32,000 nt of DNA, taken from assembly GCF_000020025.1 (NCBI RefSeq), contig NC_010628.1:4110001-4142000 (forward strand), given 5' to 3'. The stretch comes from Nostoc punctiforme PCC 73102 (GTDB lineage: Bacteria; Cyanobacteriota; Cyanobacteriia; Cyanobacteriales; Nostocaceae). Numbering within the stretch: position 1 is the stretch's first letter; every line of letters begins with the position of its first letter. Below, piece after piece: positions 4,304-32,000 of the stretch. The notes under the pieces are model-generated. The model was not told the origin of the DNA, made no database searches, and saw nothing but the letters and a program-made list of their open reading frames with translations. A program made the position numbers and the translations under genes.

Positions 4304-4934
4304 ACAGCATAATCAAACCCAGTCGCACACCCACAGCAACAGCCTCGGTACGGCTGGAGACACTGAGTTTTTGAAAAATAGATGAGAGATGAAATTTGAC
4401 GGTATGCTCAGAAATCTGCAAACGTTTAGCCATCGCTTTATTCCCCAACCCAGAACCAAGCATACCTAAAACTTCTATCTCGCGTGGTGTCAATGTTTGT
4501 ACAGGATTTGCCACCACTTTTTCTCGAATAGACAGTAATTCTATAGCATCCGGGTGCAGCACCACTAAACCAAAAGCGATCGCCTCCACAGCCGCGACAA
4601 TTTCTAACTCTGTGCTAGTACTGGGCAATATCCCCCGGATACCAGAACGTAATGCCGTCTCTAAGTCGATGCTATCGAGTTCCTCAATAATGGCGATCGT
4701 TCCTAATGGGTATTGCTGTTCTTGAATAAGCAGTAATTTTTCCCACACCGATTGTTGAAGGTTAGCGCTCAAATCTATCAGCACCACATCTGGTTGTAAT
4801 TGCCCAACTTCCCTTGCCAATTCATCCAAATCGGATGCACTCCCCACAACCGTCAGCCGAGGATTGGTAGTCACCACAGCTGATAACCCTGCCCGCACAA
4901 CAGGGGAAGTGGCAACTACCATTACTCGAATCAC
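4302..4934 (-). CDS. LuxR/NarL-family response regulator with a degenerate receiver domain
   Basis: The C-terminal HTH is TPREIEVLGMLGSGLGNKAMAKRLQISEHTVKFHLSSIFQKLSVSSRTEAV. The N-terminal receiver keeps the acceptor-position Asp (PDVVLIDL). The acidic pair is replaced (VMVVATSPVVR instead of DD), and no Lys is seen at the conserved position (GILPSTS). Confidence 0.85.
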   Translation of the reverse strand: MIRVMVVATSPVVRAGLSAVVTTNPRLTVVGSASDLDELAREVGQLQPDVVLIDLSANLQQSVWEKLLLIQEQQYPLGTIAIIEELDSIDLETALRSGIRGILPSTSTELEIVAAVEAIAFGLVVLHPDAIELLSIREKVVANPVQTLTPREIEVLGMLGSGLGNKAMAKRLQISEHTVKFHLSSIFQKLSVSSRTEAVAVGVRLGLIML

Positions 4935-11793: not shown

Positions 11794-11961
11794 GGTAGTA
11801 GCTAAACAGGAGCAGAAACAATTTGAGTGGACGCTATATTTGTGGGAATAAATACTAATAGCCTGAAACAAACCTTAAGTTTAAATATCAATAAATACTT
11901 GCCATATATATATAATAAGTAAGTTGGCACAATCAGAACAAACTAGACTAGAATCCTTATG

Positions 11962-11985
11962 CCTATTTCCTATTTCCTATTGCCT
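11962..11985. repeat. Heptamer tandem repeat (CCTATTT/CCTATTG), inverted relative to 8263..8299
   Basis: Read directly: CCTATTTCCTATTTCCTATTGCCTTA. Confidence 0.7.
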
Positions 11986-12140
11986 TATCCCAACGACAAT
12001 TATTTACGCCCACTTATTTAGATGCATATAAATGTAATCCCCCCAGCCCCTCTTGCAGAGAGTAAGGAAGGGGAGATATGTTACTAAGCACCACTATTTA
12101 TTAAGTCCTGGTGCAAGGTATCAAAATTGCCTAATTTTAC

Positions 12141-12422
12141 CTAGGCGCAACCTGCTGTACAATGCCAGTCAATATCCTTATTGGTATGATTAGCAGACAT
12201 CATAGCTCCACTAACACTGAGTAATTCCTCTTCACTCAACTCGTAGGATTCTACAGAATTTAAATCTGTCAGTATTTGAGAGATAGCTTCAGTTGTGAAG
12301 TTGTAGCCCTTTTCTGCACCCGCAGCCATAATCAATTTGATGGATTCTGCTAGGTTAGTTGCTTCTTCAATCTTTTGTTGCAGTTGAGCATTTGACAGTA
12401 GTTCTTTGATTTGTGATAACAT
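12141..12422 (-). CDS. lanA: Lanthipeptide precursor with a Nif11-type leader (prochlorosin-like). Predicted core: MMSANHTNKDIDWHCTAGCA
   Basis: The leader MLSQIKELLSNAQLQQKIEEATNLAESIKLIMAAGAEKGYNFTTEAISQ...ELSEEELLSVSGA fits the Nif11 leader pattern. It has a double-glycine-type cleavage motif (E-8, L-7, V-4, G-2, A-1). The core has 2 Cys and 3 Ser/Thr. A strong SD lies upstream. Confidence 0.85.
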   Translation of the reverse strand: MLSQIKELLSNAQLQQKIEEATNLAESIKLIMAAGAEKGYNFTTEAISQILTDLNSVESYELSEEELLSVSGAMMSANHTNKDIDWHCTAGCA

Positions 12423-12430
12423 AAAATTTT

Positions 12431-12435
12431 CCTCC
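12431..12435 (-). promoter_or_regulatory. Shine-Dalgarno GGAGG, 8 nt upstream of the lanA ATG
   Basis: The minus strand reads GGAGGAAAATTTTATG. Confidence 0.6.
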
Positions 12436-12938
12436 GTTCTTGTTGATTTAGTATTTAGCTACATTTGATTTGATTTAGACAGTTCCAGCAGGGAATTTGC
12501 ATTTGTCCGGTGCAGCTTTCTCTGCTGAACTGGTTTTAATGTAGAGATAAATCGGGGAGAACTAGGGGAGATAATTTAGAAAATGTTTGAAAAGTTGAAG
12601 AGAAGCAAAAATCATGCAAGCCGCACGATCATAATACTTATCATTGCAATATAAATAAAAGTGGCGTTGCGGAATCATTGAATGATTTCGCCCAATTAAG
12701 AACTAATTTTCAATGGTTTTGACTGCCAATTCACCGCGCAAGCAAATTTTTGTAAGACACCGATATTGAAAACATCCAACTAACATCTGTCAAAATATTA
12801 GAGGTCGTTCTATCAAAGGCCAAAATCTTGCTGAGGAAAATGTATTTCTAATTATTCTCGAATTCAATCAGAAGAATCTACCAATCTAGTATACTGCGGA
12901 GCAAGTTTGCCTATCTTTAACCGGTTGCTCAGAGCAAC

Positions 12939-13712
12939 TTATTTTCCTTTAAGGTAGAGGAACTGATTGATCGTATTTACAATGATTTGGCACTGCTGGC
13001 GTGAGCGAGTGGGTGCTGATAGAGAAATTGGTTTAGCTGATATCAATTCCAGTTGTACTAAATACCACGGAATTCGAGTCTTTATGGGTATATGAATCAC
13101 TTGAGCTTGCTGAACTGAAGTTAGCTCTTTTTGTGTGGTAAATGTACCAAACAATTGGTAGCGTTTCTCTAACGTCATCTGCCCTGAGATTTTGTCAAAA
13201 TCACACAAGATTTGCATTGGTATTGTTAGAGACTGCAAAATGACTCCAATTCCAGGCAAAAAGAATACAACTCCATTAAAAAATCCTGCCCAACGATCGT
13301 CCTGTTGAATTTCTAGCCCAGGTTGTTGAGGGTTATGGATGAAAGCGTTGATTTTGTCTGCAATTTGCCTGTGTTTTTCGCTCACAGTTACTCCGTAGTT
13401 AACTAATTTTACCTCGTGAATATTAGAAGTATGCAGGACAACTCCAGTCCCATGTGTTGTCTTGACATAGGCTGCCGTTAGCTTCCCAGGAATTAAGGTT
13501 GTCTGTGTTCTTAGTAAGCCGACAGTTGTTTGTTGACAGCTCATTTGGGCAGGCTTAATTCGCTGACATTTCAATGTAGTGACATTGCCTGTCACAATAG
13601 CTATCCCCAATCCAACTGTCACAAAAGGAATACCAAATAATACTCCCCAGAGCCATTGTTCATCGTGACCTTGAAGTTTTAATCTAGTCGATGTTTGCTC
13701 AATAATATTCAT
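12939..13712 (-). CDS. Hypothetical membrane protein with an apparent internal duplication (two TM-plus-small-domain modules)
   Basis: There are two hydrophobic segments (WLWGVLFGIPFVTVGLGIAIV and FFNGVVFFLPGIGVIL). Each is followed by ~100 aa ending in a similar helix (IADKINAFI / IIVNTINQFL). No family was recognised. Confidence 0.5.
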   Translation of the reverse strand: MNIIEQTSTRLKLQGHDEQWLWGVLFGIPFVTVGLGIAIVTGNVTTLKCQRIKPAQMSCQQTTVGLLRTQTTLIPGKLTAAYVKTTHGTGVVLHTSNIHEVKLVNYGVTVSEKHRQIADKINAFIHNPQQPGLEIQQDDRWAGFFNGVVFFLPGIGVILQSLTIPMQILCDFDKISGQMTLEKRYQLFGTFTTQKELTSVQQAQVIHIPIKTRIPWYLVQLELISAKPISLSAPTRSRQQCQIIVNTINQFLYLKGK

Positions 13713-13856
13713 TTGATAACAAATCTAGCTAATACCCGTGACAAATCACCAGGTTTAAAGTTCCCCTCAGTAGGTTGCCGATTTTGGTAGGCTGGTTCCA
13801 GATAAAGATATTTACAATAAATATTTGTGAATTGGGTATGAGGTTGAATTGCCCAG

Positions 13857-19286: not shown

Positions 19287-20093
19287 CTAAAGTGCTTTCT
19301 GTATAAGCTTCATAGCCCTTAAACCCCTGAGATAAAAGCTCTGCTTATTGCGAATGGAAGCGACCAGTTCCTCAACCCATGCTTGACATTCATTCCAAGC
19401 GACTATCCAATTTTGACCATATAAACCTATCCAAAAATTACTATGTCGTTTAGAAGTTCGACTTTTTTCTTGAGTGCGACAAATATAAGATTCTTGTTTT
19501 TGCAATTTAGTTCTTTGTCCGTGTAACCAAGCACTTGTCATGGCTAAAGCAATTAAGAAAATTAAACGCACAAGTCTATCAGGATTAGCTTTAGAACCTT
19601 CGAGATTATAACCACCTGTTTTACAATCACGGAACATAGCTTCAATGCCGAAACGCGCTCCGTAGATTTGAGCAGCAGTTTCTAAATCAGGCAGATTAGT
19701 TAATAAATACCAAGGTTCTGGTTCCTGTTTATTGCGATATTTTCTTTTCCAATATACTGCTAAATTAAATCTGCCAAACCCTCGTTTTTGAGTCAAATTG
19801 ATACCCAAATAAAACTGGCGGATTCCTGGATAAATATCAATGCTGCTTCAAGGCTGAAATTTTTGTCTTTTCTCTCGGAAGGTTGTGTCCTTTTTTTGAC
19901 GGAATACAAAGCTGAGATTCTTCCTGTGTAACCACTCCGCTAATTCTATACTATGAAACTCTCTATCGCCAATAATCACTATTTTGTAATTTTTTAACAA
20001 GCGAATCACTGGGCGTAAAACTTTTTGTTGCTCTTGGAAGTTACTGCAACCATCTTTTTCTAACAAGCACCAATATACCTGAAGGGGCGACAT
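19287..20093 (-). pseudogene. IS4-family transposase pseudogene: 5'-truncated copy with an internal in-frame TGA (19848..19850)
   Basis: ORFs 19848..20093 and 19287..19808 are in the same frame. They align with residues ~115-382 of the intact neighbour (DREF, FGIEAMFRDCKTGGYNLE, RHSNFWIGLYGQNW). The first ~5 codons of the upstream ORF derive from the terminus of the adjacent IS. Confidence 0.8.
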
Positions 20094-21285
20094 GAAGCCT
20101 ATAAAGCTGACTGTATAAGCTTCATAGCTCTCATCCCTTGTAAATAATTCTCTAGTTTATGACGACTTAATCGCATTAAATCTTGAACTAAACTCCAACA
20201 ATCACCAATGAAATTAACCCAGTTCTGTGCATAAAGACCGATATAAAAGTTACTATGCCTTCTGTGAGAACGTCCATATTCTTTGGGACGTGCCACATAT
20301 TTTGCAATTCCTTTACTCTTAATATTCTGACCTTGTAATGTAGCAATAGTGTAAACTAATGAGATGATTAAAACTAAAGCAATAAACCGCTTACCTTCCA
20401 CATTTGTCTTCTCTAAATTGTAACCGCCACTTTTAAAATCTCTAAACATCTCTTCTATATCAAAGCGCTTTTGATATGCCGGAATCGCCGTTATTTTACT
20501 ATTCATGTTAGTTAAAATAAACCATCCTTCTTTGGCTTTGTTTTGACGGTAATTCTTTTTCCATTTGCAAGCCACATTAAATCCCTTCACTTGTTTAGTT
20601 TTTGTTAGCGTTGCATCTGATACAAAAAAAGATGTTCCTGGTTTTAAACCTAAATCTTTTATTTCGCACCATAAATGAGCTTTCAACTCAATATTCTCAT
20701 TTTTCTTGAGTCTCAAACAAAACTCAAACCCTTGTTCATCAAGCCATTCCGCCAAGCTCACTGAACAAAACTCTCTATCTCCTAACACTACCGTTTTATA
20801 GTTTTTAAATAAGGGAATTATCTTTGATAATGCCTTAGTTTGTTCTGATAAGTTACTACTACCTAATTTTGCTAAAAGCTTAAAGTATATCGGTATAGCT
20901 CTTTTTTGAAAAATTACACTAATCATTAGTAGATTTTTTCTTTTCCAATTCGTCCTATCAATTGCTAAATAGATTCGGTGATTTCCGAGGAAAGTTTGAG
21001 CTAACCATCGTTCAATTATGGGAAACCATAATTCTTCTATATTCAATATTGGTAATGATAGAAACCTTTGTAACTTCTTCCGTCTCGACTGGCATTGAAT
21101 GAATAATGGTCGCGACTCTGATATTTTCTCTAGTTTCACATCTTTGATATTTTGTACTACGTTAATCACCAGCGTCAGAAATATTAATTCGGACTGTGAA
21201 AGTAAACTTTGTAGATGCTTCTGGTATAATTCAGGTAACATTTTCAACAGATAGGTCTTATTGACAATACTGACCTATCTTTTTT
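20082..21285 (-). mobile_element. IS4-family insertion sequence (intact transposase); right end defined, left end approximate
   Basis: The 11-mer AAGGGGCGACA lies exactly 6 nt beyond the transposase stop in both IS copies (20082..20092 and 19270..19280), which marks the shared terminus. No convincing matching inverted repeat was found at the other end. Confidence 0.5.
20099..21241 (-). CDS. IS4-family DDE transposase
   Basis: DREF block, and the exact IS4 Y(2)R(3)E(6)K signature in AYQKRFDIEEMFRDFK. The start is placed at ATG 21241 (MLPELYQKH...). Confidence 0.85.
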   Translation of the reverse strand: MLPELYQKHLQSLLSQSELIFLTLVINVVQNIKDVKLEKISESRPLFIQCQSRRKKLQRFLSLPILNIEELWFPIIERWLAQTFLGNHRIYLAIDRTNWKRKNLLMISVIFQKRAIPIYFKLLAKLGSSNLSEQTKALSKIIPLFKNYKTVVLGDREFCSVSLAEWLDEQGFEFCLRLKKNENIELKAHLWCEIKDLGLKPGTSFFVSDATLTKTKQVKGFNVACKWKKNYRQNKAKEGWFILTNMNSKITAIPAYQKRFDIEEMFRDFKSGGYNLEKTNVEGKRFIALVLIISLVYTIATLQGQNIKSKGIAKYVARPKEYGRSHRRHSNFYIGLYAQNWVNFIGDCWSLVQDLMRLSRHKLENYLQGMRAMKLIQSAL

Positions 21286-21756: not shown

Positions 21757-23625
21757 TTAGAAAAAGCTCTTGTATGCATCAACAGGTAACGGTGCATTGC
21801 CTGCTTGTACGGGTGCTTGTGGGATAGGAAACTTCCGATCTACTTCCTTGACTCGCAAATCTAAATCTTCCTGTGTGGGCTTTTTCTGGGTACTTTTCCT
21901 AGCAAGCTCCTTAATGACTTTATCCCACTTAGTATCGTTTTCTTGTTCGAGTTCGATAATATATTTCGGGATTTTGATATTTTTTAAGATTGGTACTGAA
22001 CCCTCATTTTTATTACTATAAGCTGGGTTAATAAATAGACATTTACCAGGTGGTAATTTTAGGAATTGGGCAGGCTCAAGTAGCTTCCGAGTCCGTTCTT
22101 GTTCGCTGATAGATGTGCTGGCTTTACCCCCTCCAGTTGAGCGAGATTTTTGTTTATATTTAATTTCCTCTTCACCTAAATATGCAGAAAATAATCTAGC
22201 AGATTCTTCTTCACCAGGATTAAAAACAAATTTTGTGCCGCACGCACCGAGGATGGCTTTAGAGATTTCTTTACCATAAATCTTTTCAAGCTGACCCATA
22301 TTTTGCCAACCCAGGATACCGCAGAATCCTTCGGAACGAGATTCGTTAAGCCATTTAAATAAATCTGGAAGGAAGATACTTGGCAACTCGTCAAGACATA
22401 CTACTAATGGGCCATCTTCCTTGCCTTTTTTGGCGATACTGCGGGAAACTACCATGTGGAGAATGCTGGTCATCAGGGGGCTGACAGCATCGCGGCGTTC
22501 GCGGTCTAACCCGAAGATAATCATCTGTTTGCGTTTTACCTCCAGGGGAAGGGTTGTTTTACCGACAAAGCATCCCAATGTACCCCTTGCCATGAACCGG
22601 GTGAACATCAATGAAGCGCTACCAGCGATACCCGCCACGGTTTTTTCGGAGCCAGCCGAACTAAATAATTGACCAAAAGCTATCTTAATCCAGGGGTTTA
22701 ATGCTGCTGCCATCAAGCGTTCGACCATCTTCTCGCTGGAAAGTATTGCCGCAGCTGTCATAATATCAGCGCGGTCGCCAAACTCCTTGGTTAACATTAA
22801 GATAGCCTGCGTCAGCTGATCGCCCGCAGGGCCAAAGAATGCATCCTCAGACGCATTACCTAACAGGCGGAAGTTCTTGTTAATAACCGTAGCTAACTGC
22901 CGTGCGGTTTCAGCATCAGAGGAATCGCGCAAGAAATCGATGGGATTACATACCTCCGATTCGGGAAATCCCGGTGCAAAGATATGTACGTCATACCCCT
23001 TTGATTTGGCATAACTGGCGATTTTGGCAAGACTTGCATACTTGAAGTCATATAGTACGATACCAAAACCTTGGTCAATTGCTGAGTAAATCATCGGGTT
23101 GATAGCCGAGAATGATTTACCGCTACCAGGTGCGCCAATTACAGCAGTTCCGCGTTGGACATCAGGTACATAAACTGGAACTCCCCCACTCCCCTTGGGT
23201 GATTTTTGACCCTTGTATTTGTGTATCCCGATATACAGACTAGCACTATCACACTTAGGAGCTAAGATTTGCTTCAAGGCTTTTTTCTTAGCTTGGGCGG
23301 TTTCCTTTGCTCCACCCCAATAGCTAGTAGCAAGCTTGCCTTTTTTACCATTACTAAAAAGCTGTAAAAGCAACAATAAGCCAATTCCACCCGCAAGTGC
23401 CAAACCTTGAGGTGACATGAGCTTATCTGTATATTTACTAAAGTCAGTATTGCTATTTTTATGAGTAGCTTTTACTTCTCTAACAGTCTTAGTTTTAGCA
23501 GTTAAAAACAGATAATTATTCATATTAATCTGTGTTAATTTGGCATGAGGAAATCGAAGAAATATGCGATGAAGTGAAGCTGCATATTTCTCCGTTATTT
23601 GTGTGGTGTGTCCTCTCCAAGTCAA
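21757..23625 (-). CDS. Type IV secretion coupling protein (VirD4/TraG/TraD-like T4CP)
   Basis: N-terminal TM segment (LALAGGIGLLLLLQLF), Walker A (GAPGSGKSF) and Walker B-like (LVVCLDELPSIF). The true start is uncertain; an ATG at 23523 (MNNYLF...) is plausible. Confidence 0.85.
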   Translation of the reverse strand: MTWRGHTTQITEKYAASLHRIFLRFPHAKLTQINMNNYLFLTAKTKTVREVKATHKNSNTDFSKYTDKLMSPQGLALAGGIGLLLLLQLFSNGKKGKLATSYWGGAKETAQAKKKALKQILAPKCDSASLYIGIHKYKGQKSPKGSGGVPVYVPDVQRGTAVIGAPGSGKSFSAINPMIYSAIDQGFGIVLYDFKYASLAKIASYAKSKGYDVHIFAPGFPESEVCNPIDFLRDSSDAETARQLATVINKNFRLLGNASEDAFFGPAGDQLTQAILMLTKEFGDRADIMTAAAILSSEKMVERLMAAALNPWIKIAFGQLFSSAGSEKTVAGIAGSASLMFTRFMARGTLGCFVGKTTLPLEVKRKQMIIFGLDRERRDAVSPLMTSILHMVVSRSIAKKGKEDGPLVVCLDELPSIFLPDLFKWLNESRSEGFCGILGWQNMGQLEKIYGKEISKAILGACGTKFVFNPGEEESARLFSAYLGEEEIKYKQKSRSTGGGKASTSISEQERTRKLLEPAQFLKLPPGKCLFINPAYSNKNEGSVPILKNIKIPKYIIELEQENDTKWDKVIKELARKSTQKKPTQEDLDLRVKEVDRKFPIPQAPVQAGNAPLPVDAYKSFF

Positions 23626-23661: not shown

Positions 23662-25074
23662 TTACTTTTTAGGGACTGTGAGAGGTGTACCAAGAATAAT
23701 TGGGTCTATTTCGCGGTAGGTGAAGAAGGGAACAGGGCCAATGAAGTAGGGCGAGCAGCCCAAGTCAACCCATCCTCGCTTGCAAATACGGAAGAACATC
23801 GCGGTGGTGATACTGCCGTCAGCTTCGTTAATATCCCAGATGACTTGTTTAAATGATTTCCCAAAGGGATGACGGCCTGTGGGTTCTTTCCCACCGTTGA
23901 GGCTGCCCAAGATGCCGAATCCGCCTTTAACGTTTTGGTCTTTGCCGGACATCCACTGTGCGCCAGTAACGGTATCGCTACCCGAAACTTCGATGTGACC
24001 GCACTTTTTCTCGCACGGAACATTAAACTCAGCTTGATAGCTACCGCTTATTGACTTCCAGCGTCCGCTTTCAAGCGAACCGAGGGGTAAGTCTACTTTG
24101 CCGATAAAGCTAACATCGGGAATTGGTACACTGGGGAACTGGTCAAATGGAACATCAGCCAATCCCGGAACCTTACTAATTGTTGTGTTTTGCCAGTTAG
24201 TAAAGTCCTTTAGCTGTGCATCCTCAATACCGGGGATGCTGGTTAGTTTATACTTATCGAGTTTGACGTACTTACCGAGTTCCACTTCTCCCAGTTCGGG
24301 ATAATTGTCTAGCACTTCACCAACAGTTTGGTAGCTTGCGGTGCTGCCTGTTACTTTGGTCACTAGTTCTTTAATTGGTGGGATGGCTCCAACTTCTGAA
24401 TCTTCAAGCTTGGGAATTGCTTCGGTGAGGTCTTCGAGTGTTTGCCACTCTAGTGTCTCAAAATCTGACAGTTTGAGATTTTTGAGTTGAACGCCCGTGA
24501 TGTTGGCGATATCTTCAAGCGTGAAATCTTCAATATTGAACTCAGTTGCTTCAAAATCACCTAATTCCATGACTTCGGAAAGGCTTTGTCCTGCGCTCCA
24601 GGTGCGTGTCTCCTTCATCCCAGGGTTTTTGATATTAGGAAATTCGGCGCTGCCAGCACCGCCAAATTTCATATTTTTGAACGTGATACTACTCCAGTCA
24701 GGAGTAGGTGCGCCGTTGACGTATTTAGTTGCAACGGGCTGTGGCTGTTTGGTTTGTTTTGTTTTATCTATCGAAGTGTTCAAATTTGAATACTTCGATG
24801 GAACTGTTTGAGCTACTGCTTTCTCACCGAATAGGAGACTGCCGATATTGTAGCTACCTCCAAACCGGATTAACCCGTGTAGGGCAAGTCCTGCAATAAG
24901 TCCTGCAACCATCAGGTAGCGTAAGTTATTAAATTTTTCCATCCGATACTCAAGCGCTCGGTTGGTTTTGTTGTGAGTGGTTTCTTGACTTGCAGCTCTC
25001 ACTGGTACAATCGCAGTTACCTCGGTTGTGGTATCTAAAATTTGGTTGTTAGAGGTCAGATTTTCGTTATACAT
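23662..25074 (-). CDS. Membrane-anchored T4SS-operon protein of unknown function (470 aa)
   Basis: It has a single N-terminal TM (YLMVAGLIAGLALHGLI), an acidic repeat-like middle and a Cys-containing C-terminal domain. No family was recognised. Confidence 0.5.
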   Translation of the reverse strand: MYNENLTSNNQILDTTTEVTAIVPVRAASQETTHNKTNRALEYRMEKFNNLRYLMVAGLIAGLALHGLIRFGGSYNIGSLLFGEKAVAQTVPSKYSNLNTSIDKTKQTKQPQPVATKYVNGAPTPDWSSITFKNMKFGGAGSAEFPNIKNPGMKETRTWSAGQSLSEVMELGDFEATEFNIEDFTLEDIANITGVQLKNLKLSDFETLEWQTLEDLTEAIPKLEDSEVGAIPPIKELVTKVTGSTASYQTVGEVLDNYPELGEVELGKYVKLDKYKLTSIPGIEDAQLKDFTNWQNTTISKVPGLADVPFDQFPSVPIPDVSFIGKVDLPLGSLESGRWKSISGSYQAEFNVPCEKKCGHIEVSGSDTVTGAQWMSGKDQNVKGGFGILGSLNGGKEPTGRHPFGKSFKQVIWDINEADGSITTAMFFRICKRGWVDLGCSPYFIGPVPFFTYREIDPIILGTPLTVPKK

Positions 25075-25255
25075 CACTGTTATTTAAAAATTATTGATTC
25101 AAGAGAAAGTTTGTTTTATCTGTAGTTGGTGTTATTAGAGGGTTATTGCGCTGTGGTGGTATTTCTAAGAAGCGCTTTCCACCCAGCAGCATGAGTTTTT
25201 CAACCAACTGCATTGATACTCCGGTGCTGCTGGCGGCGACAACAAGTTCCTCTCC

Positions 25256-25924
25256 TTACGATCGCAACTCAACAAGTTGGTTCAGACGCTTCCAAAGCTT
25301 GCTATCTGTAGTAACCCACTGATTTTTAAGGGCAACTTGCATTCCTTTAGCGATATGTCTGCTATCAGATAATGCCGTGTAACTGACCTTTGGTTTTACT
25401 TCTTCAGGTTTGCTGGGAGTATCGCCAATAATTTCAATTTGGCTGTACTCTGGTGTGCCACTGCCCGCTAGAATCCGAAAGTGATAGCTTTTCCTTGTTG
25501 ACCCAGATTCGGTAATCACCGTCATGTGCGCCCCGTAAGAAGCTTGTGGTAAACCGGGGATTTTGACTGTCTCGATGCGGCGAATGTGAATTAGTCCAGC
25601 ACCCGTACTGTTGCTAGAACACTTACCCAAGCCTTCAAGACATCCGTCTACATCAAAAACAAACCTAGATGGGTCATCTAGCCAGATTTTCTTGATGATT
25701 TCTCTGGTGTTGTAGAACGATATTGATACCCCATGTCCAGGCCAGACCTTAACTGTCTGCAATTGGGCATTTTCCCCTGACACCTGGGACGCTGCAACTT
25801 GACGGATAGTATTTGCCAATACAAGTTGGCTTGGTGCAAGCACGGAGGCAATGGTGAGGCACCCGCCAAAGGCGATCGCGCAGGGCATCATTAAACTAAA
25901 GTCGGCTATATATCTGAATTTCAC
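25256..25924 (-). CDS. VirB9/TrbG-like periplasmic T4SS component (tentative)
   Basis: It has a signal-peptide-like N-terminus (MMPCAIAFGGCLTIASVLAPSQLVLA). The beta-sandwich pattern VKVWPGHGVSISFYNTREIIKKIWLDDPSRFVFDVDG...YHFRIL resembles the VirB9 N-domain. Its GTG start overlaps the upstream stop (GTGA). Confidence 0.5.
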   Translation of the reverse strand: MKFRYIADFSLMMPCAIAFGGCLTIASVLAPSQLVLANTIRQVAASQVSGENAQLQTVKVWPGHGVSISFYNTREIIKKIWLDDPSRFVFDVDGCLEGLGKCSSNSTGAGLIHIRRIETVKIPGLPQASYGAHMTVITESGSTRKSYHFRILAGSGTPEYSQIEIIGDTPSKPEEVKPKVSYTALSDSRHIAKGMQVALKNQWVTTDSKLWKRLNQLVELRS

Positions 25925-26448
25925 AGTTTGATTGACCTATCGACTTTGATTGTGATTTTGGTGTCTTTAGGCACATACCAGACATTGGGACGGCGGTTGA
26001 TTTCGTCGGTGGCACGTTCTGTCCGCTTGCTGACTGTTTCGCCAAGTTTGCCAAAGGCACCTTCAATAAAGGCAGCTCCCAGGTTGCGGTTGTTATTGCG
26101 GCTGCGGGTTCTTGTCCCACCTAAAGGCAAATCTTCTGTGACTTCTTCATCCGGCTGGTTGATAATTTCCCCTACCTTGGCAAGACCAGCTATTGTCCCC
26201 AAGGTGGCATCATACTTGGCAATTTCAGATCCCTTGTTGTCGTAGGGTCTGGCGGCTAGGGGGGAACCTGCTTCTCCCAGGACTGATATCGTTCCGGGTG
26301 ATATGGGGTATTCAGTTCCGTCTTTGAGAATAGCCGTGACTTCGGCACGCACGCCTGATGTGCTATCAACCGAAATCATGGCGATAGTTACCTGCGATCC
26401 CTGCTCAATGGTAAAGTTGTGTGGTGGCAGATAACCTCGATCATCCAC
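25921..26448 (-). CDS. VirB10/TrbI C-terminal-domain-like protein, lacking the usual N-terminal TM/Pro-rich region (tentative)
   Basis: The C-terminal RPNVWYVPKDTKITIKVDRSIKL resembles the VirB10 terminal strand pattern (PTI.V..G..V.I.V..DL). It has a GTG start, and an in-frame stop lies 9 codons upstream. Confidence 0.5.
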   Translation of the reverse strand: MDDRGYLPPHNFTIEQGSQVTIAMISVDSTSGVRAEVTAILKDGTEYPISPGTISVLGEAGSPLAARPYDNKGSEIAKYDATLGTIAGLAKVGEIINQPDEEVTEDLPLGGTRTRSRNNNRNLGAAFIEGAFGKLGETVSKRTERATDEINRRPNVWYVPKDTKITIKVDRSIKL

Positions 26449-27223
26449 CGATAACTTCTGTACCTTCCTTTCCGTTTAGTTGACTCAAACGCAAAACTAT
26501 ATCTTCTAATTTGTATACATGGCTGTCAAAGTCGTTTTTCAGTTTGTCATATTTTCCTGATGACAATGATTTAATGACCACTTCAACGTTTTCTTGGTAA
26601 AGCTTGTTAGCTTTTTCTATTGCCTCTTGCCTCTGATTCAGTCCCTTTAAAACATGACTTGCTATTAAATCCTGTGTTTCTTTATCAGGCAACGGAATTA
26701 GTGTTTTATTGACATCACTGTCTAGTATGGCAGGATAACTAGATCCAGTCGAAAATTTCCTAAACTGCTCCAGCGTACTAGCTAAACGAATCGCAAAGTG
26801 AAGATAAAATGGGTTAACCTCTTTTTTAGGGCGTATTACACTAAAACCAGTTGAGCATATTTGGTTATGATAAATTTCGGGTATAACTGCAATCGCTCCT
26901 CTAGTTGGTCGGCACGTAGAAATAATTAAATCGTAAGCGTTTACTACTTTTCTGGCTCTAGAAGGAGCTTCACTTCCTAAAAGTTCTTGAGGTGAAACAA
27001 TAACTCCAGTGCTTACATCTACGCTCGAAATATCAATATAGATAAACTCTTCATCTGGTTTCTTGGTTGGATCTCTTTTTGTCTGGACTATATTAGCAGC
27101 GTAAGAGATTGGCTTTAAGCTATCTGGATGGAGCTGCTTGATTCCTTCTGGTGGTAAGTGATAGTCAATATCCCAACGCCCCTCTGAGTGAAGAGCAAGT
27201 AAACTTTCTAGTCGATACTTCAT
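26441..27223 (-). CDS. HsdS-like DNA specificity subunit with a single target-recognition domain
   Basis: Typical Methylase_S pattern: FIYIDISSVD...APSRARKVVNAYDLIISTCRPTRGAIAVIP...STGFSVIRPK...YLHFAIRL...GSSYPAILDSDVNKTLIPLPDKETQDLIA, followed by a coiled-coil tail. Its ATG overlaps the methylase stop (TAATG). Confidence 0.85.
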   Translation of the reverse strand: MKYRLESLLALHSEGRWDIDYHLPPEGIKQLHPDSLKPISYAANIVQTKRDPTKKPDEEFIYIDISSVDVSTGVIVSPQELLGSEAPSRARKVVNAYDLIISTCRPTRGAIAVIPEIYHNQICSTGFSVIRPKKEVNPFYLHFAIRLASTLEQFRKFSTGSSYPAILDSDVNKTLIPLPDKETQDLIASHVLKGLNQRQEAIEKANKLYQENVEVVIKSLSSGKYDKLKNDFDSHVYKLEDIVLRLSQLNGKEGTEVIGG

Positions 27224-29067
27224 TACCAACCCACCTGATTATGAAATTCTTGTATTGCCAAGCTTATTTCGCTACCAGATTTAGCTCGACCAGTAGCATC
27301 AAATCCTATATTTTCTAATTCACAAAGAAACACTTTCGATTCTTTATCCCTCTTCTCACCATTCTTATATTTTTGAAATACGCATAATGAGGTTTTAACC
27401 ATTGCTCCGTATGGGTTGAATGCCTCTTCAGGCAAGCTGATTACAGCTTTTATCTTTGCAACATTCTCAACCCAATCACGAACAAATATAGAACTCTTAT
27501 TCTTTAAAAGCCCATCTGGAAGAACGATAGAAAGTTTTCCTCCAGGCTTCAAAAACTGAAAACATCTTTCTAACCCTAGAATTTCTAATGGCAAAGATTT
27601 TTTCTTGTGTCCTAATTGGAATCTCCCCACCATTTCCATTACCTCTTGTCTCATTATCGAGCCAAAAGGTGGATTAGTAAGAATCATTGAAAAAACTTCT
27701 GGAGTATCATCTTCTGAGTCATTTAATGCAACGATATCTGGGTAATTCTCAAAACTAAGTAAAGCATCTAAATTCCTAATATTAGTGTGTCCATCATCGT
27801 GTAGCATCATATCTGTCATGGCAATTCTAACCATTCTTTCGGATTTTTCTATGCCATGAAGATGAAAAAACTTAAACTGATGTAAGGTATAGGAATCAAG
27901 AGTAGCTCCTTGATGCTGAACAACATAATCCAAACAACGACTCAAAAAATGACCCGAACCGCAAAACGGATCAAGTATCATATCTGAAGCAGTAGGTTTC
28001 ATAATGCCTACAGCTAGATCAACAATAGGAGGTGGCGTAAAATACTGACCCATACCTGCACGTATAGCTGAACCTAAAACAGATTGAAATGCAGAACCTT
28101 TAATATCAGCTTTACTATCAATGAATGAAAATTCTTGAAGCTTTTCTACTATTTTAAAGAGTGCAACATCACTTAACTTGATAGGTGTTTTGAATACACC
28201 TCTGGATCTTTCGTAGCCTGGTATTCTTTGGTTGTATATCTCAATTTCCTTATTTCTAGCATTTTGATATAGTTCCCGAATAATCGAAGCTGCTTCTGAA
28301 GGATTACTAGCTCCATAAGTTTGAAAATTAAATTCTGCGCCCTCCTCTTTTTCCACAGTAGAGCGTTCATCAAATATTTTTACATAGATTATTTTTGCAA
28401 GTTCATCTAAAGCTTCATCATCATGTAGACCATCAACATCACGCACGATATTATGACATTCAACAAGAAGCTTACTATATTTCTCTGTAATAGGCTGAAG
28501 CCCAGTTTTTCTTGAAGGATCTGATTTTGGTATCTCTCTAATGAGTTTAACTTTAATTGAAGAGCCGCCACCAAAAGCAGGAATATCAGCTATGTATTCA
28601 AAGTCATTAGGATCAATTTTCTTTCTGATACAGCGAACTTCTTTACCGTCTGTTACCAACCCAATAGTTGCTGTATGAGTAGATGCCAAGTACGTTTCTA
28701 ATTGTCTTTCGGCTTCTTGAAACTCCTGTGATAAGACATTTTTCTTTTTTGTTTCAACATACAGAAATGGTCGGCGATTTGAGTTTTTGATTGCAATGTC
28801 CGCTTGTTTTTCGGAAGAACCCATTTTTACAGGTTCTTCTATTGTCAGCCGTTCCCCAATCCAACTTTCTGGATAACCATATTCAACTATCAGTTGATAT
28901 AAAGCCCATTGGCGAACAAACTCTTCTATAACTTCTTCAGCCCCTTCATAAGTTCCGTTTTTAGCGTGCCACTCTTCGGCTCTCTTTCTAGCCGATGCAA
29001 CGTCTCCACGACTAGAGAATTTCCAGTTACTTGGAGGTATGAGAAAAAATTCGCCTAGTTTAGCCAT
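27223..29067 (-). CDS. N6-adenine DNA methyltransferase (gamma class) fused to an N-terminal PD-(D/E)xK / HsdR_N-like domain
   Basis: Motif I is ILDPFCGSGHFL and motif IV is LTNPPFGS, in that order. The N-terminal block QADIAIKNSNRRPFLYVETKKK fits D...ExK. An SD (AGGTGG) lies 6 nt upstream of the ATG. Confidence 0.85.
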   Translation of the reverse strand: MAKLGEFFLIPPSNWKFSSRGDVASARKRAEEWHAKNGTYEGAEEVIEEFVRQWALYQLIVEYGYPESWIGERLTIEEPVKMGSSEKQADIAIKNSNRRPFLYVETKKKNVLSQEFQEAERQLETYLASTHTATIGLVTDGKEVRCIRKKIDPNDFEYIADIPAFGGGSSIKVKLIREIPKSDPSRKTGLQPITEKYSKLLVECHNIVRDVDGLHDDEALDELAKIIYVKIFDERSTVEKEEGAEFNFQTYGASNPSEAASIIRELYQNARNKEIEIYNQRIPGYERSRGVFKTPIKLSDVALFKIVEKLQEFSFIDSKADIKGSAFQSVLGSAIRAGMGQYFTPPPIVDLAVGIMKPTASDMILDPFCGSGHFLSRCLDYVVQHQGATLDSYTLHQFKFFHLHGIEKSERMVRIAMTDMMLHDDGHTNIRNLDALLSFENYPDIVALNDSEDDTPEVFSMILTNPPFGSIMRQEVMEMVGRFQLGHKKKSLPLEILGLERCFQFLKPGGKLSIVLPDGLLKNKSSIFVRDWVENVAKIKAVISLPEEAFNPYGAMVKTSLCVFQKYKNGEKRDKESKVFLCELENIGFDATGRAKSGSEISLAIQEFHNQVGW

Positions 29068-29720
29068 TAGCTACCACCTAAAATTGCTAAACTTGAATAT
29101 AACACGAATTGTGTAAAATACATTTTTTTATTTACACAAATTGTGTAAATATTGCGTTCCTGGCAGGCTTCTCCTTTGAATAGATCGGGCGCAGAGGTTT
29201 TGAGTTCTGCTTCTGCTTGTTGCAAGCAGGTGATTGAATCTTGCGTGTTACCAGGGATTGAGCGGCATCTTTCCATTGCTGCCCCTACTTGCTGCTGGAG
29301 GGCAATATTGCCGACTGCGCGGTTGAATGCTACTTCTAGGTTGGCTCCGGCAGCGGTAAATTCAAGAATGTCACTATTGACAGTATTAATGTATCCTCGT
29401 ATAGCGAGTGTTCCACTTCTGAGTAAAGTGCCATTGTTAGCTAGTAGCCCGATAACCAGGATGGGCCATATCCAACTGGAGAGAGCTTTCATATCCTCTT
29501 GATTTATCCAGTTTTTGCCTAACTCAACCATAAAAAGGGTGAGTGTGGCGATCGCAAAAAACTGACCAACTTTGCACATTGAGCCATACAAGCTACCGTT
29601 GAGGGTTTCTTGCCAAAGTTCATTGAAACCTTCAGCTACTAGTTGCGCTCCGGCTGCGGCATTTTCTAAAATGTCTTGTCCAAAAAATGGGTCAGTTGCA
29701 ATTATGAGGTGTTCTAACAT
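29067..29720 (-). CDS. Hypothetical integral membrane protein of the T4SS operon (VirB6/TrbL-like role possible); 3' end probably remodelled by the R-M cassette
   Basis: Hydrophobic segments include VGQFFAIATLTLFMV and WIWPILVIGLLA. The last ~30 codons run through the AT-rich repeat region assigned to the R-M promoter. Confidence 0.45.
   Translation of the reverse strand: MLEHLIIATDPFFGQDILENAAAGAQLVAEGFNELWQETLNGSLYGSMCKVGQFFAIATLTLFMVELGKNWINQEDMKALSSWIWPILVIGLLANNGTLLRSGTLAIRGYINTVNSDILEFTAAGANLEVAFNRAVGNIALQQQVGAAMERCRSIPGNTQDSITCLQQAEAELKTSAPDLFKGEACQERNIYTICVNKKMYFTQFVLYSSLAILGGS
29068..29153 (-). promoter_or_regulatory. AT-rich putative promoter/operator of the R-M cassette
   Basis: The 9-mer TTGTGTAAA occurs three times (29109..29117 forward, 29131..29139 reverse, 29141..29149 forward). 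The last two form a perfect 19-bp palindrome, TTTACACAA-A-TTGTGTAAA. On the minus strand there is also a -10-like TATATT and the SD AGGTGG. Confidence 0.45.
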
Positions 29721-29789
29721 AGTACTTGGTTAACAGGCGTGAAGGTTTGGTCATCTCAATTGCAGAGATGACCAACTAATTAGGGTGAA

Positions 29790-30521
29790 TTATTGCCCAG
29801 CAGTAGTTTTGAGACTACTAAACCCGCTGATTTCGATGTACTGGGCGCTGATACCGTCCATCATCAGGTTTTGACGACGGCGATCGCTTGCCCCCTGTTC
29901 GGCAAGTTGACTTAGCATCAGGTTAGTTTGCTGGACATCGTGCCGTGCTTGCAGTCCGTCGGTGCGGGATTGCCCCAACATTGAGACAATTTGCGAGTTT
30001 TGGGCAGCAATGACCTTGAGGATGTTTTGTGAAGCATCCATTGCTTGTGCAGATTCCGCGAGTTCTTTGGCCTCAGCTACAGTTTGTTCAGTTGCTTCTA
30101 TTTCATTTTTGGTACGTTCCTGACCGACTTCCCCTAAGACGCTTTCGACTGTGGCGCGGGTGGTTTCTCTCTCCAGTTCGTTAGCTGCTGATACTGCACC
30201 CTCGACAGTGTTACTTTCATTCCAGTTACCCTTGCTCTTGAGTTGCTCTTTGAGCTTTTCGGCTGAATTTACTGGGTCTGGCATATCCATACTGCCAGTC
30301 TGAATAGCAGTTTTAGCTTCGCTTTTCATCCCACCCCAATTATTAGCTGCTGCGGTGAGTTCGTTTTTGGTTTCCTCAAAATAGTTATTGAATTTGCCTA
30401 AAACCTTGAAGAAATCGTCAATTGAAAAGGCATAACTGGGTGCTGTACCGAGTAAAGTAACCAGACCAATTATTGACCCGATTATTACCCCTTTCTTAGT
30501 AAACTTGAACTTTTGTTTCAT
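29790..30521 (-). CDS. Secreted coiled-coil protein of the T4SS operon (TrbJ/VirB5-like role possible)
   Basis: The signal peptide is MKQKFKFTKKGVIIGSIIGLVTLLGTAPSYA. The rest is Ala/Glu/Gln-rich and helical. No family was recognised with confidence. Confidence 0.4.
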   Translation of the reverse strand: MKQKFKFTKKGVIIGSIIGLVTLLGTAPSYAFSIDDFFKVLGKFNNYFEETKNELTAAANNWGGMKSEAKTAIQTGSMDMPDPVNSAEKLKEQLKSKGNWNESNTVEGAVSAANELERETTRATVESVLGEVGQERTKNEIEATEQTVAEAKELAESAQAMDASQNILKVIAAQNSQIVSMLGQSRTDGLQARHDVQQTNLMLSQLAEQGASDRRRQNLMMDGISAQYIEISGFSSLKTTAGQ

Positions 30522-30559
30522 ACTTTTGGCGGATAAAATAACCAATGTGGCAATTAAAT

Positions 30560-32000
30560 TTAAGCCACTTGTTTATGATTTATTGATTCTTCCTTTTCCA
30601 AACCCAGGTTATCTGTTAGTTTTTCTTCTATAATTTTTGCTGGCTTGAATTGCTTATTGTTATTGTTATTGTTATTGTTATTGTTATTGTTATTGTTATT
30701 GTTATCCAGTAATTGTTGTGCTTCTTCGCTTAACTCATCTCCCCGAAGCATTTGTATGTATGCCTCAGAAAATCTCACCATACCCAGCATTGGATTATCG
30801 GCATATTTATTGAGGAAGAGAGTGCGTAATTCTTGCTCGTTCGGGTTATTTGCTACGGCTGCAAGCAAGCAATAAGCAGGGTAATACCTACAGAAAGTAA
30901 GTTTGCCATTATCGTCAAGTAACCACTGCGAGTAAATACTTTCACGTTTTGGGAAGAATGCTTCGGTACTATTACGCGAGATAATTTCATAAGGATATTT
31001 AAACCTGTTAACAAATGGGTCAACTGCCGATGTTTGAATCCGACCGATAAGGCGGGTTGTGATGTTAGCAAATATCTTGAAAGCAGACTTACTTTGGAAA
31101 ATACTTTCTGGTTCTTGGGCAGATAAAATTACACGTATACCTGCTTTTGCACCGTTGGCGCAGAGTCTACCAATTAGCTCGGCTATGCTGTCAAAATTGA
31201 ATAAAATCGGCGCTTCGTCTAAGAAAAATATTGATACTTTAGATGATAAAGCTCTACGTAATGCTGCGGAATAGGCGCTAAGGGCAAGAACTGCGGCATC
31301 AGCTTCGCTCCCAAGCGATCGCAGTGCGAATACCAGTAGTCGCGCATCAGTTCTAAAGCTAGATGGATTAGCGATTGATTGCCCAACTCGTGAATTTAGC
31401 CAAAACTTTAATCGCAATCTGATTTGGTCAAGAGCATTAAGAATTTCTTTACTATTATTGGTGATGGAATCGAGTTTGATAAACCCAGGCGAACAATAAT
31501 TGTAAAAATCTTTAAGTGTTGGAATATCTGCCCATTCCTGTGTTCCTAATCCATTTTCTAATGCTAGCTTATACCGAAGTTTGATATCTTCATCGTTGTA
31601 AAAAGTTTCAATTGTAATTGTAATGATACTCTCGATATTTGATATCATTGTTGGGCTTACCCCTACAGGGTTCGTCCCTAATACCATTATCATTAGTGTT
31701 GATTTCAAGAATTCCTTGAAATCGGTCATCCTTTCCTTAATAACTTCCGGCTCATACCCCCTTAAATCAGGTAATTCAAATAGGTTGTTCGACTCTTTAC
31801 TAATATCGAAATACGCCCCTTCTTCTCCCATAAATTTGGTATAGTCAGTAAACGTGCTAGTACCATCGGGTTTAGGATAATCAAGTGCAATTACAGGAAT
31901 GCCTTGAGCCAAGGCAGGTGTTAATAGACCTGCTACTAAGACAGATTTACCAGCACGGGTAGTACCAAAAATAGCGAGATTTTTGTGCTGTTTGTACAAG
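30560..32000 (-). CDS. VirB4/TrbE/CagE-like T4SS ATPase, C-terminal ATPase domain (5' end outside the window)
   Basis: Walker A is IFGTTRAGKS and Walker B is IFFLDEAPILF, followed by ILSAQEP. The ORF is open to the window edge. It carries a poly-Asn run near the C-terminus. Confidence 0.85.
   Translation of the reverse strand, partial: LYKQHKNLAIFGTTRAGKSVLVAGLLTPALAQGIPVIALDYPKPDGTSTFTDYTKFMGEEGAYFDISKESNNLFELPDLRGYEPEVIKERMTDFKEFLKSTLMIMVLGTNPVGVSPTMISNIESIITITIETFYNDEDIKLRYKLALENGLGTQEWADIPTLKDFYNYCSPGFIKLDSITNNSKEILNALDQIRLRLKFWLNSRVGQSIANPSSFRTDARLLVFALRSLGSEADAAVLALSAYSAALRRALSSKVSIFFLDEAPILFNFDSIAELIGRLCANGAKAGIRVILSAQEPESIFQSKSAFKIFANITTRLIGRIQTSAVDPFVNRFKYPYEIISRNSTEAFFPKRESIYSQWLLDDNGKLTFCRYYPAYCLLAAVANNPNEQELRTLFLNKYADNPMLGMVRFSEAYIQMLRGDELSEEAQQLLDNNNNNNNNNNNNNNNNKQFKPAKIIEEKLTDNLGLEKEESINHKQVA
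30654..30706. repeat. Hexanucleotide microsatellite (TTATTG)x8.8 inside the VirB4-like gene, encoding about 16 consecutive Asn
   Basis: Read directly. The minus strand has alternating AAC/AAT codons between GAT (Asp) and AAG (Lys). Confidence 0.9.

Follow-up and report, generated by a model that had tools for sequence, protein, structure and literature searches.

Introduction

Some type II restriction–modification (R-M) systems are controlled by a controller (C) protein or by methylation of their promoter, as exemplified by the operators of C.PvuII and C.AhdI and by the promoter site of CfrBI. R-M complexes have reportedly also been recognised, in genome comparisons from the Kobayashi laboratory, as mobile units that cause substitutions and deletions at the sites where they insert. 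The enzymes closest in organisation to the system considered here form the 'RM + S' type IIB group, which includes BcgI, BsaXI, BaeI and BveI, and REBASE lists no more than 28 type IIB enzymes (PMC11997821). Truncated specificity subunits corresponding to half an HsdS are known from EcoR124I(NT), from EcoDXXI derivatives and from the CC398-1 half-S (PMC3320862, PMC6158711). In this study, we focus on a two-gene R-M cassette in a 32,000-nt stretch of the genome of the cyanobacterium Nostoc punctiforme PCC 73102 (NC_010628.1, positions 4,110,001 to 4,142,000; hereafter the window, in whose numbering all positions are given). The cassette encodes a 614-aa subunit combining a nuclease with a methyltransferase (RM) and a 260-aa specificity subunit (S), and it lies within the operon of a conjugative type IV secretion system (T4SS). 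The explanation that best accounts for the whole of the evidence, with a probability of roughly 0.75, is that the cassette replaced about 2.8 kb of this operon and left the T4SS dead, and that it encodes a type IIB-class enzyme whose recognition site would be CAC-N5-GTG and which possibly controls its own expression.

Replacement within the Conjugation Operon

A blastn search of window positions 25000–31000 against 72,556 plasmids returned 11 Nostocales plasmids at 90–95% identity, including pC052_E of Nostoc sp. C052, pCC7120beta of Nostoc PCC 7120 and plasmid C of Trichormus variabilis. Each was matched in two pieces that covered 53–54% of the query with a total span about equal to it, and the cassette was absent from all 11, the gap being filled instead by T4SS genes; the cassette DNA itself had no match among the 72,556 plasmids. 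Pairwise blastn against pC052_E and pCC7120beta placed the breakpoints at 29166 and ~26405–26409, such that 2760 bp of unrelated DNA stand in place of 2893 bp and 2758 bp, respectively. Since the 11 relatives carry T4SS genes where the cassette sits, the foreign 2.76-kb segment is a replacement of like-for-like size and not a plain insertion. An earlier note on this DNA, made from the sequence alone, had proposed a secondary insertion that rewrote the tail of the upstream membrane protein and removed the N-terminal part of a VirB10-like protein; this was right but understated the damage, as a 261-aa gene and 198 codons of the upstream gene were also deleted. Every gene between 21.7 and 32 kb lies on the minus strand, and the features concerned are the following, in 5′ to 3′ order.

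30560–31999, minus strand: VirB4-like ATPase, first in the gene order
Between the VirB4-like ATPase and the 217-aa open reading frame (ORF), minus strand: 251-aa gene
29067–29720, minus strand: 217-aa ORF, composed of 185 native codons (29166–29720) and 32 foreign codons
26406–29165, minus strand: foreign 2.76-kb segment (promoter/operator, RM gene and S gene), delimited by blastn breakpoints, junction alignments and GC content
27223–29067, minus strand: RM subunit ORF, 614 aa
26441–27223/27229, minus strand: S subunit ORF, 260/262 aa
25921–26448, minus strand: 175-aa ORF with a partial TrbI/VirB10 match
25921–26409, minus strand: 3′ remnant of VirB10/TrbI, residues 453–614 of 614, by tblastn and by the full-length VirB10 of the relatives
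3′ of the 175-aa ORF, minus strand: 222-aa ORF
25256–25258, minus strand: premature stop at codon 223 of 277, a Gln in the pC052_E and pCC7120beta translations
3′ of the 222-aa ORF, minus strand: 471-aa ORF
21757–23625, minus strand: VirD4/TraG coupling protein

In both pC052_E and pCC7120beta, the gap holds the 3′ part of a 383-aa gene, a gene of 261 or 258 aa and the 5′ two-thirds of a TrbI/VirB10 gene of 614 or 608 aa. By tblastn, residues 1–185 of the pC052_E 383-aa protein match window positions 29720–29166 with 100% identity, the 261-aa T4SS protein has no match in the window, and VirB10 is represented by residues 453–614 only (162 codons). The Pfam TrbI match of this remnant is partial, with 33.8 bits against a curated cut-off of 35, and the GTG 'start' at 26448, located within the cassette, is unlikely to be native. 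The T4SS gene bearing the codon-223 stop encodes 277–283 aa in the relatives, and its remaining frame is still 94–95% conserved. The complete syntenic T4SS set with a full VirB10, assigned to MPF_T by MOB-suite in the relatives, is not found in the window. With the 383-aa gene truncated, the 261-aa gene lost, VirB10 reduced and the next gene carrying a nonsense codon, the mating-pair apparatus encoded here is, judging from gene content, very probably a non-functional relic, in line with the earlier suggestion that the cassette is the lesion which inactivated the T4SS. The cassette may, as had also been suggested, be a cargo co-expressed with the mating apparatus, but it comes with a putative promoter of its own. 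The locus illustrates plainly how a defence cassette can destroy the transfer functions of the element in which it lands, and matches to VirB4, VirD4 or TrbI at this place would lead to a wrong prediction of mobility.

Both junctions are ambiguous over ~15–20 nt, with alternative edges at 29149 (left) and 26390 (right). Transposon-like ends were considered as an explanation and rejected, as a repeat search found neither terminal inverted repeats nor a clear target duplication flanking the segment; the foreign segment holds no transposase gene. The first bases of the insert, TGC-CAGGAACGCA-ATATTT at ~29163–29146, include the 10-mer CAGGAACGCA, which the VirB10 gene of the relatives carries exactly at the 3′ junction, within GCAGGAACGCAGGTAAC. 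The 3′ junction of the window (26386–26409) reads CAGGGATCGCAGGTAAC, and its copy of the 10-mer has diverged (CAGGGATCGCA). A crude estimate puts the probability of sharing this 10-mer by chance at roughly 2e-4. The most likely route of replacement is illegitimate or microhomology-mediated recombination. The repeat could be the remnant of a two-step history, in which an insertion into VirB10 with a short duplication was followed by a 2.9-kb deletion upstream, or it could reflect the use of microhomology, and it may also be a coincidence.

The GC content of the cassette is 37.0% (RM 36.8%, S 38.1%), with 25–29% GC at third codon positions (GC3), against 46–51% GC and 42–55% GC3 in the T4SS genes directly flanking it. 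The low GC of both genes and the local compositional step described in the earlier note are therefore real, although its hand-counted 32–35% was slightly too low; its figure of 25% for positions 29101–29160 is reproduced on calculation. Composition was nevertheless set aside as the chief evidence of foreignness, which is decided by synteny, since among same-sized segments the cassette reaches only the 5th percentile (mean of the whole window 42%, standard deviation 2.7%) and the nearby VirB4 gene is similarly AT-rich (38% GC).

Other changes were seen in the operon and its surroundings. At 30649–30705, the window carries 9.3 copies of ATTGTT (plus strand), which translate into 17 consecutive Asn close to the C-terminal end of the VirB4-like protein, where pC052_E and pCC7120beta have 4 Asn only. 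In T. variabilis plasmid C (locus L135 of our collection, whose loci are cited by L numbers), the operon has gained TnpB and four-helix-bundle genes (1006–2301 and 4479–4844), both intergenic, and all T4SS genes are intact. Synteny with the T4SS plasmids stops at ~21348, adjoining insertion sequence (IS) debris at 19287–21247 that consists of DDE_Tnp_1 transposase fragments; further IS debris, an ISAZ013-family transposase split over two ORFs, lies at 1273–2504. The part of the window that encodes a 1131-aa class II lanthipeptide synthetase-like protein (DUF4135 + LANC_like, 8476–11871) is unrelated to the T4SS plasmids, and beyond this gene are trypsin/PDZ proteases, a LuxR-type response regulator, a phosphoglucomutase and a G6PD fragment.

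The RM and S Subunits

The RM subunit matches Pfam HSDR_N_2 at residues 48–163 (E 8.6e-20) and N6_Mtase at residues 337–587 (E 8.5e-28), and its domain order is an N-terminal PD-(D/E)xK nuclease, a helical connector, a gamma-class N6-adenine methyltransferase (MTase) and a short C-terminal helix. The D...ExK block (QADIAI...YVETKK) and the DPFCGSG and NPPF motifs pointed out earlier are present; E72, E77, D90, E105, K107, motif I (DPFCGSG) and motif IV (NPPF) do not vary among 41 homologues of 65–94% identity. A phmmer search of the PDB gave RM.BsaXI (8w0p) as the best match (E 1.3e-33), and a second, weak BsaXI alignment over the nuclease domain places D90/E105/K107 of the query on D90/E105/K107 of BsaXI. 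These three residues and E73 of BsaXI are essential by mutagenesis and conserved across type IIB enzymes (PMC11997821). An AlphaFold2 model of RM built from the 41 homologues has a mean pLDDT of 74.7, with 80–95 in the nuclease domain. With this model, Foldseek ranks three BsaXI entries first in the PDB (E 3e-24 to 8e-22, ~620 aligned columns), followed by type I HsdM (E ~1e-13, ~455 columns), which covers the methylase part only. The domain match, the aligned catalytic residues and the fold thus support the N-terminal nuclease.

The S gene starts either with the ATG at 27223 (260 aa), which shares one base with the RM stop codon (TAATG), or with the TTG at 27229 (262 aa), and it is translationally coupled to RM; the overlaps TAATG, TAATG and GTGGATGA listed earlier for the gene junctions are all present. 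S is a half-size subunit with one Pfam Methylase_S domain, that is, one target recognition domain (TRD) and one conserved helical region. Residues 47–218 align with TRD1+CR1 of Thermoanaerobacter tengcongensis HsdS (3okg/5ybb; E 1e-42) and also, weakly, with TRD2, and since the same residues match both, S has a single TRD. Five loops of that TRD contact the DNA (D41-S43, P64-R66, T81-R82, S101-T102 and S141-A144; PMC3047542), and all five are conserved in S, as DIS, PSR, (C)R, ST and SYPA. Neither Pfam nor other annotation revealed an HsdR, helicase or ResIII gene in the whole 32-kb window, so that the earlier description of a single-TRD HsdS-like subunit with no HsdR holds. Two TRDs per complex are expected to require an S homodimer, which would give a palindromic site.

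From architecture, fold and conservation, we infer that the cassette encodes a motor-less enzyme of the type IIB class, in the style of BcgI and BsaXI. Of the two possibilities raised in the earlier note, a BcgI-like type IIB system is better supported than an R-less type I derivative, BsaXI being the top match in both sequence and fold. Two 614-aa subunits, each with a nuclease and an N6-adenine MTase, would assemble on a dimer of the 260-aa S; the symmetric complex would recognise a palindromic bipartite site, methylate one adenine in each half and, by analogy with known enzymes of the class, cut unmodified DNA to the left and right of it, each time at a fixed distance.

Distribution of the Cassette Family

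A word-indexed protein search with RM returned 1725 proteins at E <= 1e-20, and the best 120 of these are 64–94% identical to it and 579–683 aa long. Their hosts include Vibrio, Photobacterium, Yersinia, Providencia, Pantoea, Bacteroides, Pirellulales, a metagenome-assembled genome of Nanoarchaeota and many metagenomes, and the source names are generic where given ('N-6 DNA methylase', 'type I restriction enzyme M protein'). In the ~150 loci retrieved, an S gene of ~225–285 aa comes after the RM gene and overlaps it. Homologous loci whose called genes were listed contain no HsdR gene adjacent to the cassette, and one of them (L142) has a separate, complete type I system ~4 kb away. The S protein is 50–85% identical to that of the window in almost all loci with RM at least 60% identical, which is unusual for HsdS; a different TRD occurs in L029, L035 and L097, and TRDs vary in the clade with RM below 58% identity. 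Nine loci (L045, L046, L047, L049, L119, L121, L128, L131 and L132), with RM 52–59% identical, encode RM and S fused into single chains of 806–857 aa, apparently a type IIG-like arrangement of RM with one S/TRD unit in the same family.

The nearest relative of the window cassette is on a metagenomic contig (L003), with 94% protein identity and 87% DNA identity over 29090–26469. At 65–94% identity, the family is widespread across phyla, always consists of two genes and is usually found on mobile elements. In Bacteroides (L136–L141, ~9277–13786; RM 68% identical), traQ in the tra operon of a CTnDOT-like conjugative transposon is immediately followed by the cassette, encoded on the same strand as the operon; the tra genes are intact, and the anti-restriction gene ardA lies ~0.6 kb downstream on the opposite strand. 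This cassette protein is listed in 203 blocks of the collection. Elsewhere, the cassette is found beside integrases (L010, L024, L153, L160) and by a relaxase-like gene (L011). In Yersinia aldovae (L155, 9037–13924), it lies between a 123-aa fragment of a portal gene and an integrase, in a P2-like prophage remnant without its capsid and early genes, possibly another instance in which the cassette has taken the place of genes essential to a mobile element.

Newly recognised here is a large clade of high mobility, so far uncharacterised, whose S subunit is half-size and whose 2.7-kb RM+S module shows 65–94% protein identity over Cyanobacteria, Bacteroidota, Proteobacteria, Planctomycetes and candidate phyla. 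A large new type IIB-like clade with a symmetric site would serve both annotation and the use of such enzymes as reagents. Neither the breadth of the family nor the conservation of the promoter dyads described below in other phyla, nor the prospect that these dyads are the recognition site of the enzyme, had been foreseen in the earlier note.

Promoter Dyads and the Predicted Recognition Site

Upstream of the RM gene, the foreign segment carries the following elements.

29129–29151: distal dyad, a perfect 23-bp palindrome (11+1+11), TATTTACACAA-T-TTGTGTAAATA, with the core CAC-N5-GTG at 29135–29145
29102–29114: ACAC-AATTC-GTGT, the proximal dyad, which lies 32 bp downstream of the distal one and abuts the -10-like element with its 3′ half
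29096–29104, minus strand: extended -10-like TGnTATATT, read from the sequence, right after the proximal dyad
29079–29074, minus strand: Shine-Dalgarno sequence AGGTGG

The operator-like array reported previously is thus real, but it is larger than described, with a palindrome of 23 bp and not 19 bp. It lies, as had been said, inside the 3′ end of the 217-aa ORF, whose last 32 codons are foreign DNA there; TATATT (29101–29096) and AGGTGG are also present, the former preceded by TGn. A 16-nt direct repeat joins 29102–29117 and 29134–29149. ACAC-N5-GTGT occurs twice in the window, both times in this promoter, against 0.3 expected, and two or more occurrences were found in 4 of 100 shuffles. A simple sigma-70 scan gave only a weak -35/-10 pair (29149–29122), and TGnTATATT is a putative promoter element of the cassette. 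A 12-bp inverted repeat at 29057–29093 would allow the RM mRNA to form a hairpin (-16 kcal/mol for the -45..+24 segment) in which the start codon is base-paired and the loop contains the Shine-Dalgarno sequence; as a regulator hiding the RM start this hairpin was rejected, being specific to the window and not kept in 10 close homologues.

Among 148 homologous loci, 21 carry dyads (27 distinct sites), including loci in other phyla, and their consensus is TTA-CAC-N5-GTG-TAA, with invariant CAC and GTG cores and an unconserved spacer. Every homologue whose RM is at least 73% identical has one or two dyads upstream, as have the more distant L024, L037, L039, L077, L079, L104, L153 and L155. Paired dyads are mostly 32–33 bp apart (L005–L010, L055, L057, L058, L153), and in the closest homologues the proximal one lies 44–51 nt before the ATG. 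In promoters of cassettes with the window-type TRD, CAC-N5-GTG has 34 matches against at most 5 at any other spacing from 1 to 14, and TACAC-N5-GTGTA occurs 22 times in these promoters and 0 times elsewhere in 730 kb. The loci with a different TRD (L029, L035, L097, L042-type) have neither TACAC dyads nor a consistent alternative dyad. No conserved regulator or small ORF was found upstream in eight dyad-bearing loci, whose neighbours all differ; a controller gene beside the cassette was rejected, the upstream ORFs of these loci (integrase, relaxase-like, UvrA fragment and others) being mutually unrelated.

The core of the dyads is also the site that the TRD would be expected to read. The target of M.TteMI, the enzyme to which the T. 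tengcongensis HsdS aligned above belongs, is given as CAC-N7-TGC in a review table citing Liu et al. 2017 (PMC10073500), and a homodimer of a CAC-reading TRD leads to CAC-Nx-GTG as the expected target. In CAC-N5-GTG, the target adenines are 8 bp apart, which by our own count is the spacing in the BsaXI site, AC-N5-CTCC (PMC9159934).

Avoidance of the site was measured in the DNA around 81 cassettes carrying the window-type TRD, which amounted to 361 kb after de-duplication. The counts of CAC-Nx-GTG for x = 1–14 are 50, 50, 50, 55, 24, 45, 62, 40, 59, 61, 46, 58, 51 and 54; that is, N5 is the minimum of all spacings, with 24 sites against ~46–50 expected (~2-fold depletion). Comparison with spacings of the same codon phase gives Poisson p values of 1.3e-4 to 3.5e-4, and the ratio obtained when loci are bootstrapped is 0.45 (95% confidence interval 0.26–0.66). 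A statistic over all spacings was discarded as inflated by codon periodicity (TCG-N5-CGA seemed stronger), and phase-matched controls and an agnostic ranking were used instead; among 576 palindromic 3-Nx-3 motifs (x = 3–11), CAC-N5-GTG is second by ratio and fifth by p. The first 180 kb contained 7 sites against 22.5, and the DNA added later showed a weaker effect in the same direction. GCA-Nx-TGC is not depleted in the flanking DNA. Outside the promoter, the window contains no CAC-N5-GTG, and other spacings from N4 to N7 have 3–5 sites each. At ~24604, three relatives have CAC-N5-GTG (CACCTGGAGTG) where the window reads CACCTGGAGCG; this is the only homologous site lost in the window alone, and hence anecdotal. 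A second mutated site of the window is also mutated in pC052_E.

Taken together, TRD homology, promoter dyads and avoidance suggest that CAC-N5-GTG could be the enzyme's own recognition site, a proposal whose chances we consider evenly balanced; in the literature searched, no mention of CACNNNNNGTG as a methylation motif was found. With two copies in its own promoter, the proximal one abutting the -10 element as judged from its position, occupancy of the dyads would be expected to block RNA polymerase, and the enzyme or its methylation could set its own expression with no separate C protein. Such autoregulation through the dyads is proposed tentatively, at somewhat less than even odds. The complete picture, of an uncharacterised, travelling type IIB-like enzyme with a homodimeric half-S and a CAC-N5-GTG site that would regulate itself, controller-free, by binding or methylating its promoter, is in its entirety less likely than not. 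If it is true, a lock by the self-site could explain why the TRD is conserved (50–85% identity) when ordinary type I systems diversify theirs. The new predictions are N6-methyladenine (m6A) at CAC-N5-GTG as the specificity of the enzyme and a candidate autoregulatory promoter that is free of a controller.

Alternative Explanations

The two genes might have been an ancestral part of the T4SS operon, a conjugation-linked R-M module since lost by the relatives, and the Bacteroides cassette after traQ shows that an association with transfer operons recurs. We give this virtually no credence and regard it as ruled out by synteny: the 11 related plasmids have intact 383-aa, 261-aa and 614-aa VirB10 genes at that spot, in-frame fragments of two of these genes are left in the window, the nearest DNA relative of the cassette is on a non-T4SS metagenomic contig, and the GC3 values of cassette and flanking genes differ as given above. 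As regards function, the pair might methylate only, being an R-less type I derivative or an orphan MTase whose N-terminal nuclease-like domain is vestigial or structural, and serve for epigenetic marking or as a shield against restriction by other elements. This reading would suit the generic NCBI and JGI names of the homologues and the best PADLOC profile, an MTase_II model that starts at residue 114; moreover, HSDR_N_2–MTase fusions also occur in MADS MAD2, and an engineered nuclease–HsdM fusion methylated without cutting (PMC6158711). We consider it improbable, as E72, E77, D90, E105 and K107 would hardly have stayed invariant in many phyla unless catalysis were under selection, the whole chain including the nuclease domain matches BsaXI best, and the depletion of CAC-N5-GTG around the cassettes implies that the site is costly to carry. 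The cassette might also be what is left of a larger defence system of many genes, such as MADS or BREX, in view of NCBIfam matches to MAD2 (E 2.9e-69), MAD5 (E 7e-10) and, weakly, PglX. The MADS scores are, however, far under the curated cut-offs (MAD2 234 against 720 bits, MAD5 38 against 400 bits), on which ground membership was rejected; the window has no other mad or brx genes, and the module consists of two genes in many different contexts, leaving this origin a very slim chance.

The TTACAC-N5-GTGTAA dyads, in turn, might be operators for a separate dimeric transcription factor encoded by the host or elsewhere on the carrier elements. The layout of the dyads is the classic one for a helix-turn-helix repressor or C protein, with half-sites of 5–6 bp, a centre spacing of 10 bp, two operators separated by three helical turns and an overlap with the -10 element; the flanking T-A/T-A-A is conserved beyond CAC/GTG, and most homologues with the same TRD have no dyads. 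Such a factor is nonetheless less likely than not: no regulator is conserved in the neighbourhood and the hosts span Cyanobacteria, Bacteroidota, Gammaproteobacteria and Betaproteobacteria, the dyad core coincides with the half-site that homology of the TRD to TteMI would predict and is depleted in flanking DNA, and the conservation of the flanks can partly be explained by the needs of the -10 element and of an AT-rich promoter.

Several points weigh against the replacement of a now-dead T4SS segment by a self-regulating type IIB-class enzyme, the explanation that we prefer. About 85 of 106 loci with the same TRD have no dyad in the 200–260 nt searched upstream, and regulation by the self-site is thus not general; TTACAC-N5-GTGTAA is also longer than a typical 3+3 type I/IIB site and fits a dedicated dimeric transcription factor too. 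The table from which the TteMI target was taken mis-states the spacers of EcoKI and EcoR124I, and CAC, not GCA, is assigned to TRD1 of TteMI by convention. The avoidance is modest, with CCC-N6-GGG and other motifs similarly depleted and an empirical significance of ~0.01 rather than 1e-4. The AlphaFold2 model of RM is moderate (pTM 0.59, parts of the methylase core with pLDDT <50), the first catalytic Glu of BsaXI (E73) is not cleanly aligned, which makes the invariant E72 and E77 candidates only, and cleavage on either side of the site is assumed for the RM+S pair by analogy. Finally, trans-complementation by another element may restore the lost T4SS function.

Comparison with Known Systems

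Likeness is greatest to the type IIB 'RM + S' enzymes, with which the cassette shares a PD-(D/E)xK nuclease, a connector and a gamma N6-MTase in one chain, a separate HsdS-like subunit, the lack of an ATPase motor and D/E/K residues at the same positions as in BsaXI. With its 614 aa, its R-H-M domain order and a short helix at the C-terminus, RM conforms to BcgI, BveI and other members of this group (PMC11997821). In contrast to BsaXI, to which it is ~24% identical, RM has 614 instead of 916 aa and lacks both the knob and the 'paddle' (800–916), and S has one TRD, not two, for which a homodimer and a palindromic site are predicted. Single-chain type IIG/IIL enzymes (MmeI, BpuSI, DrdV) differ in that S is a separate ORF in the window. 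A type I system would comprise HsdR, HsdM and HsdS, whereas HsdR is absent from the window and the nuclease is fused to M. Within type I, M.TteMI of Caldanaerobacter subterraneus subsp. tengcongensis (3okg, 5ybb) is similar through its TRD1 to the S TRD and through its HsdM to the methylase domain, and differs from the cassette, where the nuclease is fused to M, S is half-size and the predicted spacer is N5, not N7. The truncated half HsdS subunits resemble S in having a single TRD and one conserved helix, and they dimerise to give a symmetric bipartite target, as S is predicted to do, but their partners are type I HsdM and HsdR, while that of S is a nuclease–methylase fusion.

As for regulation and mobility, paired palindromic operators overlapping an R-M promoter recall the control of the C.PvuII, C.AhdI and CfrBI type. 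In C-protein-regulated systems a small helix-turn-helix gene belongs to the unit, whereas only two genes lie between the junctions here; no C gene is present in the cassette and none is conserved beside its homologues, and the dyad core would match the predicted recognition site of the enzyme itself. The overwriting of part of another mobile element's transfer operon by an R-M unit is an event of a known kind. Like the mobile R-M units of the Kobayashi type, the cassette has no transposase and stands at a site where relatives carry other genes; it differs from them in having landed midway along a T4SS operon, where it took the place of a stretch of nearly its own length.

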